DNA from: Escherichia phage SKA64
DNA: 64,000 nucleotides
Reading direction: 5' to 3' (one strand)
Sequence record: OM362897.1
Part shown: positions 6,480 through 6,960 of the stretch, piece after piece
Position numbering within the stretch: position 1 is the stretch's first letter
How the letters are laid out: each line of letters begins with the position of its first letter
Made by a program: the position numbers and the translations under genes
Notes under the pieces: generated by a model
The model's input: only the letters and a program-made list of their open reading frames with translations
Database searches by the model: none
Told to the model about the DNA's origin: nothing

Positions 6480-6720
6480 TGCACACCTCCATTCTTGTTA
6501 AGATGTTACGTACTGTACTTCATACTGATTTATAGATCAAGTATTATTTATAATAATTTATTATTTTATTTTTTAATTGATAGAAGTTGATCTGTACGTA
6601 CCAGTTCTGATACACTGTACCTGTTTGTTAGATCTAATAATTATTTATTATTAATATTTAATAATTATTAATCTAGTACGGAGTACAGTACTTGAGTACA
6701 GAGTACTACATCAACAACCT
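6480..6720. repeat. AT-rich divergent intergenic region with clustered GTAC-containing repeats
   Basis: Repeated tacgtactgtact / ctgtacgtacc / gtacggagtacagtacttgagtacagagtact plus AT palindromes. No ORF of 60 aa or more. Confidence 0.5.
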
Positions 6721-6960
6721 AAAACCTTAACTCGCTGCGCTCGTTAATAGATTTCTAGGGTAGCATACTTCGAACACAAAAGTCAAGAGTTTTATTAAAA
6801 ATTATTTTCTGTGTGCAAAACCTTGCTTAAACAGGTAGCAATAGTATAGCTTATAACATAAGCTTCATAAGAGGCTCGTAGAGCAAGTTTACTTACTAGG
6901 TAAGGTGATTTATCATCTTATATATAAAAAGTGCGTCAGAGACGCGTTTAGGAGGCTAGA

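Follow-up and report, generated by a model that had tools for sequence, protein, structure and literature searches.

Divergent promoter regions and clusters of methylation sites at promoters or origins of replication are both of known kinds. Here, the spacer at positions 6480-6960 of a 64,000-nucleotide stretch of Escherichia phage SKA64 (OM362897.1) is compared with the closest described systems; the whole stretch is called the window in the following. The spacer separates two opposed gene blocks and contains a cluster of the palindrome GTAC, called the array below. It appears to be a compound divergent promoter region, on which the GTAC repeats would be a later overlay.

Bidirectional promoters have been reported for phage rV5 (genes 10/11), and like regions are known from other virulent coliphages. 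The SKA64 spacer shares with these the outward-facing pairs of -35 and -10 hexamers, the A/T-rich tract between them, the two long opposed blocks of genes, and conserved hexamers with spacers that drift in sequence. In contrast to the rV5-type regions, SKA64 has two such predicted pairs, a convergent arrangement of the inner promoters P_R1 and P_L2, and a dense array of an avoided palindrome lying over core promoter elements.

Elements controlled by Dam methylation of GATC include pIN of IS10, the GATC sites of pap, the 13-mers of oriC, the GATC heptamer repeats of P1 oriR and the hexamer repeats of P1 pac. The array is similar to these in that a 4-base palindrome, the putative target of adenine methylation, is far denser than expected at a promoter or A/T-rich unwinding region, in that one site would place a methylatable adenine inside a -10 hexamer, and in its spacing of about 7 bp, which recalls P1 oriR. 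In contrast, the SKA64 motif is GTAC and not GATC, the putative writer is an orphan methyltransferase encoded by the phage itself, and the motif is strongly avoided elsewhere.

Transcription-primed phage origins are represented by oriF and oriG of T4 and by the primary origin of T7 with phi1.1A/B and its A/T-rich segment. Here, the likeness lies in a predicted promoter with an extreme A/T tract only some tens of bases downstream of it and in the uniqueness of the locus in the genome. The A/T palindrome of SKA64 is, however, specific to its clade and the predicted promoters are of the host type rather than phage-specific. With iteron-type origins the spacer would share the A/T-rich unwinding element (runs of 38 and 37 bp), but it has no direct repeats of 17-22 bp in helical phase and no adjacent initiator gene.

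A further group of systems comprises operators. Those of the E. coli Trp repressor contain GTAC in the form GTACT-N8-AGTAC. Inverted GTACT/AGTAC half-sites overlap promoter elements in SKA64 as well, and a string resembling a half-site, CTAGTAC, is present at 6673-6679; the complete GTACT-N8-AGTAC pair is not present in the region, the nearest spacing being 9. Operator arrays of the lambda OR/OL type likewise consist of repeats that overlap core promoter elements, with sites of about 14-20 bp that share a dyad-symmetric consensus, but no cognate regulator was found for SKA64 among the nine flanking proteins scanned.

Predicted promoters at the junction of two gene blocks

The window belongs to a Phapecoctavirus, that is, to the phAPEC8-like E. 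coli myoviruses of about 150 kb within the subfamily Stephanstirmvirinae, and about 20 Phapecoctavirus genomes match it at 99% identity over 3 kb. The layout and the remaining ~85 kb of the genome were read from the well-annotated close relative vB_EcoM_ASO2A (ASO2A). The spacer is the junction of a rightward block of about 36 kb, which starts on the plus strand at 6961 and contains small open reading frames (ORFs) and nucleotide-metabolism genes, and a leftward block. The latter contains, in this order, an ORF of 61 amino acids (aa) at 6294-6479, ten tRNA genes (3579-5501), the gene of the large terminase (1-2076) and the structural genes. Because of this composition the leftward block is not "early," as it had been labeled in the sequence-only reading; the junction is one between a middle-type block and a tRNA/late block. 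As that reading had stated, no credible ORF lies within 6480-6960, where only mechanical ORFs of 46-47 aa are found at the edges.

Homologous junctions were located through the 107-aa protein that heads the rightward block and whose homologues mark the equivalent junction across the subfamily. Five lineages were compared: the window itself, the phiWec clade (phiWec181; 76% DNA identity), Justusliebigvirus muut, Klebsiella phage phi1_175008 and Citrobacter phage Tr1. In these five Stephanstirmvirinae lineages pairs of hexamers are kept at homologous positions, while the spacers between them have diverged. The resulting promoter predictions are as follows.

Positions 6512 to 6540, minus strand: predicted promoter P_L1, with TTGATC (6540..6535), a 17-nt spacer and TACAGT (6517..6512); predicted start at about 6505, about 25 nt before the ATG at 6479.
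Positions 6587 to 6616, plus strand: predicted promoter P_R1, with TTGATC (6587-6592), an 18-nt spacer including an extended -10 TG, and TACACT (6611-6616); predicted start at about 6623.
Positions 6757 to 6786, minus strand: predicted distal promoter P_L2, with TTGACT (6786..6781), an 18-nt spacer including an extended -10 TGc, and TACCCT (6762..6757); predicted start at about 6750.
Positions 6823 to 6850, plus strand: candidate promoter P_R3, with TTGCTT, a 16-nt spacer and TATAGC, back-to-back with P_L2 across an A/T tract at 6790-6808.
Positions 6888 to 6916, plus strand: candidate promoter P_R4, with TTTACT, a 17-nt spacer and TATCAT, proximal to the first rightward gene.

P_L1, P_R1 and P_L2 each match the consensus in 8 of 12 positions with TA...T in the -10 hexamer, and two of them carry the extended -10 TG. 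In the relatives, P_L1 reads TTGACT-18-TAGAGT, TTGACT-17-TAGAGT, TTGACC-17-TACACT and TTGACC-17-TAGTAT, and P_R1 reads TTGATC-18-TACTAT, TTGTTA-17-TAGTAT, TTGATT-17-TATAGT and TTGTAA-17-TAGTAT. When TTGnnn-N16-18-TAnnnT is searched for formally, with 8 or more of the 12 positions agreeing with TTGACA/TATAAT, all three promoters are recovered in every one of the five lineages with few extra matches. P_R1 and P_L2 face each other in all of them, and the predicted P_L2 transcript crosses the entire array leftward.

The two candidates on the right are kept in fewer lineages. The hexamers of P_R3 are conserved in phiWec (TTGTGT-16-TATAGT), and the segment is unalignable in the other genera. P_R4 comes from a simple promoter scan; a homologue is found in Citrobacter phage Tr1 (TTGACT-17-TACCAT), and the block GGTGATTTAnCATC is conserved.

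A simple promoter scan alone is not above chance, with four matches against 5.2 expected. The earlier proposal of a bidirectional promoter is supported by sigma-70-type hexamer pairs that point in both directions and occupy homologous positions in five lineages with diverged spacers. It is therefore well supported by the footprint of conserved hexamers that the spacer acts as a compound divergent promoter region with two back-to-back pairs, each around an A/T tract, and with P_R1 and P_L2 convergent. A literature search found no transcriptome of any Stephanstirmvirinae or Vequintavirinae phage.

The GTAC array and its conservation

Within the left and central part of the spacer, the following elements are found around these promoters.

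Positions 6510 to 6518, no strand assigned: left GTAC pair, GTACTGTAC, or GTACAGTAC in the minus-strand reading.
Positions 6542 to 6578, no strand assigned: A/T block 1, 37 bp of pure A/T between the back-to-back -35 hexamers and the second-longest A/T run in the genome of about 150 kb.
Positions 6594 to 6620, no strand assigned: central GTACs, GTACGTAC at 6594-6601 and one GTAC at 6617-6620.
Positions 6630 to 6675, no strand assigned: near-perfect A/T palindrome (A/T block 2) of 46 bp, AGATCTAATAAT...ATTATTAATCTAG, with a pure A/T core at 6635-6672.
Positions 6674 to 6708, plus strand: right GTAC array of five units about 7 bp apart, TAGTACG GAGTACA GTACTT GAGTACA GAGTACT.

The region had been described as packed with at least ten GTAC cores. 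Exactly ten are present in 197 bp (6510, 6515, 6594, 6598, 6617, 6676, 6683, 6688, 6696 and 6703) in comparison to about 0.2-0.5 expected, and the strings quoted in that description are found at 6512-6519 (ACTGTACT) and at 6682-6707 (AGTACAGTACTTGAGTACAGAGTACT). The word "packed" holds for 6510-6706 but not for 6707-6960, which carries other conserved elements.

This density stands against a genome that avoids the motif. The whole window contains 60 GTACs, whereas 156 would be expected from shuffles and 176 from an order-2 Markov model, and GTAC is the most depleted of the sixteen 4-base palindromes with an observed-to-expected ratio (O/E) of 0.34; GATC, with an O/E of 0.95, is not avoided in this way. 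At the observed background rate, ten or more GTACs within 211 bp have a Poisson probability of about 4e-15, and at the rate expected from composition one of 2e-10; the cluster is the most extreme local pile-up among all 4-mers in the window. In the other 85 kb of the genome, read from ASO2A, GTAC is equally depleted (O/E 0.32). Since a census of this remainder revealed no second GTAC cluster, the array is unique in the genome.

Small groups of GTAC at 27.3 kb and 45.3 kb lie in coding-looking sequence and have no repeat structure. The first of them, with five GTACs in 200 bp at 27,289-27,490, is located in a segment of higher G+C content inside a dTDP-glucose 4,6-dehydratase gene, which may have been acquired more recently and not yet been purged of GTAC.

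The A/T-rich palindromes that had been noticed are real. Arms of 18+18 nt without any spacer lie at 6635-6670 (89% complementary), and a 56-nt imperfect inverted repeat pairs 6510-6565 with 6636-6691; one arm of it corresponds to the "repeat_region" features in three Danish GenBank records. The core at 6635-6672 (38 bp) is the longest pure A/T run in the genome, and after the top two runs the next are 31 and 20 bp long. A further dyad extends from ACTGTAC (6614) to GTACAGT (6689) and gives a 76-nt hairpin of single-stranded DNA at 6614-6689 with a fold z of -3.9. A/T block 1 is A/T-rich in all lineages despite sequence drift and could be an UP element, a segment of bent DNA or an unwinding element.

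The right array includes an inverted copy of the P_L1 -10 region, GTACAGTAC at 6683-6691, which lies behind the A/T palindrome and has no -35 hexamer. The oriented hexamer GTACAG occurs five times, leftward at 6513, 6592 and 6615 and rightward at 6683 and 6696. Apart from the 56-nt repeat and the arms of the dyad at 6614-6689, the shared repeat unit is just GTACAG(T), that is, 6-9 bp in two orientations. Tandem Repeats Finder reported the A/T tracts only and left out the GTAC heptamers, which are too short and irregular.

Several GTACs lie directly on predicted promoter elements. As read from the letters, the P_L1 region on the strand transcribed leftward is G-TACAGT-AC, so that the left GTAC pair brackets the -10 hexamer. 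One GTAC occupies -13 to -10 and its adenine is the non-template A-11; the other occupies -8 to -5 and includes T-7, with a template-strand adenine opposite this base. A-11 is the base that is flipped out and captured by sigma-70 during promoter opening. In P_R1, GTACGTAC lies in the spacer directly after the -35 hexamer, and the GTAC at 6617-6620 follows the -10 hexamer directly, in the discriminator; the central segment 6587-6621 as a whole reads TTGATCTGTACGTACC...ACTGTACC. The overlap with core elements of P_L1 and P_R1 is as in repressor operator arrays, which makes an operator function of the GTAC units plausible.

In the junction of Klebsiella phage phi1_175008 (fragment 1340-1485), all three GTACs overlap predicted -10 hexamers in the registers known from the window: the one on P_L1 spans -13 to -10, and those on P_R1 and on a third leftward match span -8 to -5. 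This sample is small and the coincidence may be due to chance.

The array is restricted to one clade. The phiWec clade retains the promoters, the A/T block and the hexamers that contain GATC. Other letters stand there in place of every GTAC, and neither the right array nor A/T block 2 is present. Because the P_R1 spacer of phiWec reads AGTATAGAGCAGATCTGT at the equivalent place, the central GTACs would have arisen by substitution. In the other genera the junction contains one to three GTACs but not the array. The array is also missing from a complete Vequintavirus genome, of which the best cluster comprises five sites inside a coding ORF. The depletion of GTAC is about twice as strong in the phAPEC8 clade (O/E 0.32-0.37) as in Vequintavirus, Justusliebigvirus and the phiWec clade (0.60-0.72, with small samples for the latter two) and is clade-specific. 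The comparison of these junctions indicates that the GTAC repeats are a later, clade-specific overlay on a promoter scaffold shared by the subfamily.

Inside the phAPEC8 clade the array is conserved. Across four further genomes that diverge by about 2%, all 40 site-by-genome cells of the array retain their GTAC, in comparison to 128 of 171 cells for GTACs elsewhere in the window, where about 25% differ. Counted by site, all ten array sites but only 28 of 44 others are fully conserved (Fisher p = 0.024). Conservation in relatives, on which the sequence-only reading had made its proposal depend, is thus found inside the clade and not outside of it. Scans of IMG/VR and metagenomes with conserved flanking patterns returned only five and three loci, respectively, and added little diversity. 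Maintenance of the array by selection in its clade is reasonably supported, since it is a unique cluster of an otherwise purged motif, was partly built by substitutions in a conserved spacer and is fully kept where other GTACs turn over.

To the right of the array, three further elements are found besides the promoters.

Positions 6731 to 6743, no strand assigned: conserved box, CTCGCTGCGCTCG, with TTAAC/GTTAA as its flanks, located where the predicted P_L2 transcript has its 5' end.
Positions 6812 to 6820, minus strand: single match to the DnaA-box consensus, TTTTGCACA; one in the region against 0.08 expected, which is weak evidence.
Positions 6933 to 6957, plus strand: leader hairpin GCGTCAGAGACGC and, after it, the ribosome-binding site AGGAGG; conservation extends to phiWec and Justusliebigvirus.

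The box is invariant or nearly so in all five lineages, and the core of the DnaA-box match, TGTGCAAA, is found in phiWec too. A scan for IHF, Fis, T4-late and rV5-late motifs gave nothing above the expectation for A/T-rich tracts, and a scan of 6200-7100 against Rfam at a permissive threshold gave only chance matches to snoRNAs.

A P_L2-type cassette, TTGAC(T/A)-N17/18-TGnTACCCTAA followed by a G+C-rich hairpin or box, recurs on the plus strand at about 46,920-46,960 and in ASO2A at about 136,861. It is conserved across the subfamily and occurs twice in one IMG/VR contig, and boxes similar to CTCGCTGCGCTCG follow this promoter type at other loci of related contigs. The copy at 46.9 kb carries GGTACC, and hence a GTAC, on its -10 hexamer.

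Possible transcription control and methylation, and competing explanations

Phapecoctavirus and rV5-like phages are among the most frequently isolated candidates for E. coli therapy, and the spacer is the best-defined candidate control point. Our preferred reading, to which we give somewhat less than an even chance, is that of a central divergent region of transcription control in which the GTAC sites are cis-regulatory and possibly methylation-sensitive. Here, the sigma-70 RNA polymerase of the host would start at two back-to-back promoter pairs, with P_L1 and P_R1 flanking A/T block 1 and P_L2 and P_R3/P_R4 flanking the third A/T tract. The leftward promoters would serve the small ORF, the tRNA genes and, at greater distance, the packaging and structural block; the rightward promoters would serve the nucleotide-metabolism block. 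The five-unit array beside the A/T palindrome would resemble an inverted copy of P_L1 without its -35 hexamer. The GTAC sites would modulate the promoters, either as binding sites of some factor or through a methylation state that alters promoter opening.

The idea of methylation is based on three observations, namely N6-methyladenine at GTAC in virions of phage Bas51, a gamma-class methyltransferase in the clade and the A-11 adenine at one site. For the Vequintavirus Bas51, native nanopore sequencing of the wild type has reported methylated adenines in 1405 cases at GATC, in 509 at GTAC and in 576 at other motifs (PMC12548924). In the T83P methyltransferase mutant, the numbers are 35 for GATC and 511 for GTAC; methylation of GATC is lost and that of GTAC is kept (PMC12548924). 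The Vequintavirus genome examined here, Aya, has 257 GTAC sites, about half of 511, so that essentially every GTAC would be methylated on both strands in Vequintavirus. The enzyme with T83 corresponds to a small Vequintavirus ORF with T83-NPPY and not to the gamma-class enzyme; its homologue in the window lies at 33680-34189 (48% identity).

The gamma-class DNA methyltransferase, of the N6-adenine type with the motifs EPSAGEGAF and GNPPFG, is encoded in all 64 records of the phAPEC8 clade and in Vequintavirus. Its locus is empty in phiWec179/190 and in Justusliebigvirus, lineages which are also without the array. That this enzyme methylates GTAC in phage SKA64 has, in our estimation, roughly even odds.

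A further lead comes from the assembly of BI-EHEC (OL505078.1). Over 49 kb of its alignment to window positions 70-50,323, 34 of 48 GTACs are altered (71%), in comparison to 33% for the next-worst 4-mer and a baseline of 7%. The changes are mostly from GTAC to GTAT in one orientation, only two gains are seen, and nine of the ten array GTACs are affected. BI-EHEC is a nanopore-only assembly (Guppy 4.0.11, Medaka; PMC8686590), and the pattern looks like motif-specific miscalling at a modified base; dependence on host or library, or a real sequence change, may also be the reason. The avoidance of GTAC, together with such anomalies in one nanopore-only assembly, bears on the quality control of assemblies and on the prediction of restriction sensitivity. 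A literature search found no paper linking GTAC with Phapecoctavirus.

Several points weigh against a regulatory and methylation-sensitive array. Genome-wide, GTAC is not enriched on -10 hexamers: TACnnT preceded by G has a -35 hexamer in 7 of 99 cases, compared with 3-7% for other preceding bases. The co-occurrence of methyltransferase and array rests on three lineages only, and Vequintavirus has the gamma-class enzyme but no array. In addition, Aya encodes a third methyltransferase-like ORF as an alternative candidate for the GTAC enzyme, and no specificity of the gamma-class enzyme could be inferred from Pfam, NCBIfam, a PDB sequence search or a search of 5.8 billion proteins. The signal of BI-EHEC is not general, since DW-EC, which was sequenced with the same nanopore pipeline (PMC8752677), keeps the array GTACs in the 1 kb available. 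The overlay is dispensable in principle, because sister lineages run equivalent promoters without GTAC, and conservation is a weak test, because the clade is young with about 2% divergence.

A stronger form of the preferred reading, a self-encoded epigenetic switch in a virulent phage, is rather improbable. It would consist of an orphan GTAC adenine methyltransferase and a genome purged of its motif except for the ten-site array. N6-methyladenine would be placed on A-11 and opposite T-7 of the promoter heading the tRNA/late block and around the most meltable A/T palindrome, so that incoming, fully methylated DNA and newly replicated, unmethylated DNA would be read differently. This might couple a change from early to late transcription, or the firing of an origin, to replication, in the manner of Dam at IS10 or oriC but with a motif of the phage's own. 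A GTAC version of the methylation-site cluster, with a suspected writer borne by the phage and a genome purged of the motif, appears to be undescribed. If the GTAC sites were methylation-sensitive, a lytic phage would use its own orphan methyltransferase for the control of genes or replication, beyond anti-restriction; if they are not, the region still maps the promoter architecture of the subfamily.

As the main rival explanation, the region would be an origin of DNA replication, which we consider unlikely. The A/T tracts would unwind, and synthesis would be primed by a P_R1 or P_L2 transcript that forms an R-loop in the A/T palindrome; in variants of this explanation the palindrome would be extruded as a cruciform, and the GTACs would mark or destabilize its flanks if methylated, or bind an initiator. 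The spacer holds both of the longest pure A/T runs in the genome. Of all 100-bp segments of the window, the one that starts at 6491 has the lowest stability, which differs by no more than 0.5 kcal/mol from the genome minimum. The predicted P_R1 start at about 6623 is followed within 12 nt by the 38-bp A/T run (the -10 hexamer ends at 6616 and the run starts at 6635). The dyad at 6614-6689 folds as described above, and, as expected of an origin, there is only one such element in the genome. The cumulative GC skew has its minimum at about 7 kb; however, GC skew in phages tracks the direction of transcription, which switches here, and the same conclusion was drawn for rV5 (PMC3606486). The one DnaA-box match would also fit, but a single box could be due to chance. 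Furthermore, the 7-bp units point in both directions and are out of helical phase, and no iterons of 17-22 bp were found by Tandem Repeats Finder or a repeat search. An initiator-like gene is not adjacent, as judged from the Pfam/PHROG scan of nine flanking proteins, and A/T block 2 as well as the GTACs are missing from sister lineages with homologous replication genes.

It is likewise unlikely that the array has no dedicated function. According to this explanation, a -10 region of the GTACAGTAC type was duplicated in inverted form, its units were expanded by replication slippage, and the product persists in a young clade. The 56-nt inverted repeat indeed connects the left pair to the right array, whose period is about 7 bp and whose copy number varies. 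DW-EC has a 13-nt deletion in the right array, and small slippage duplications are present just downstream of it in anhysbys and Ro121lw. Sites are also lost: anhysbys and phAPEC8 lack one each, and in nieznany, a short assembly, a deletion of about 70 bp removes P_R1 and the three central GTACs (6594, 6598 and 6617); sister lineages have no array at all. On the other side, the genome removes GTAC about three-fold elsewhere, and about 25% of the non-array sites differ at 2% divergence, yet all 40 array cells are kept. In addition, the central GTACs came from several point substitutions in a conserved spacer and not from duplication, and the array is the most extreme 4-mer pile-up in the window. 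Duplication and slippage account for the form of the repeats, but not for their persistence.

An element acting at the RNA level is very unlikely. In this explanation, transcription from P_L2 would yield a leader of about 270 nt, the right arm of which pairs with the left arm immediately before the ribosome-binding site of the 61-aa ORF and so controls translation or stability; alternatively, convergent transcription from P_R1 and P_L2 would result in antisense control. The convergence of both promoters in all five lineages would fit, and the predicted leader of 273 nt folds with long-range pairing of the two GTAC arms (z = -3.2). This fold, however, follows automatically from the inverted repeat in the DNA, no Rfam family matches, and the proximal P_L1 would bypass the leader. 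The array is present in one shallow clade only, which offers no covariation.

A packaging signal or genome end (a pac site or terminal-repeat boundary), proposed by analogy with P1 pac, is most improbable and was rejected: the array is a unique cis element with a short palindromic motif repeated at both ends of a dyad, and the GenBank record of nieznany starts inside the region, but the other 60-odd records start elsewhere, nieznany is an assembly deleted at exactly this spot, and the terminal-repeat region of the sister-genus phage BME3 (Justusliebigvirus), with a 342-bp direct terminal repeat determined by PhageTerm (PMC12210895), has its homologue at about 60.2-61.7 kb of the window, 54 kb from the array.

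Flanking genes and other loci of the window

The spacer is bordered by two genes of which the products have no assigned function.

Positions 6294 to 6479, minus strand: first leftward gene, encoding a Cys/His-rich acidic protein of 61 aa, function unknown (PHROG 26411); annotated as a coding sequence in relatives.
Positions 6961 to 7284, plus strand: first rightward gene, encoding a protein of 107 aa, function unknown (PHROG 14390), at the head of the block of about 36 kb.

The scan of nine flanking proteins against Pfam and PHROG revealed no Pfam domain and no DNA-binding regulator. The functional labels from PHROG are limited to an HNH endonuclease (9256-9864) and one weak match to a structural protein. 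The former is a 202-aa ORF on the plus strand (PHROG 953). ASO2A has no coding sequence annotated as HNH in the corresponding stretch, BI-EHEC is unaligned over window positions 9259-10000, and in Tuntematon the HNH gene lies at a different position nearby. This ORF is probably a mobile insertion.

On the minus strand at 3579-5501, the tRNA array comprises 10 genes in comparison to 12 in ASO2A, where Tyr-GTA and Ser-TGA are extra; therefore, the tRNA content varies within the clade. The homologue of the T83 enzyme at 33,680-34,189 (plus strand) is an ORF of 169 aa that is annotated as hypothetical and in which NPPF comes after T83; its product is probably a small Dam-like enzyme of the phage.

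Differences from other genomes of the clade are concentrated at 40,800-43,200, with most substitutions in the bins at 41,400-43,000. This clustering suggests mosaicism by recombination around the Sir2-like gene, and several GTACs that the window has in this segment are missing from all four compared genomes.

Finally, the stretch at 60,100-61,700 is free of ORFs over about 1.5 kb, has an AT skew of -0.21 and shows pile-ups of TTAT, TGTT, TTGT and GTTG at 61,188-61,322. It includes one of the least stable 100-bp segments of the genome and is homologous to the terminal-repeat region of BME3. The physical ends of the genome are probably located here.

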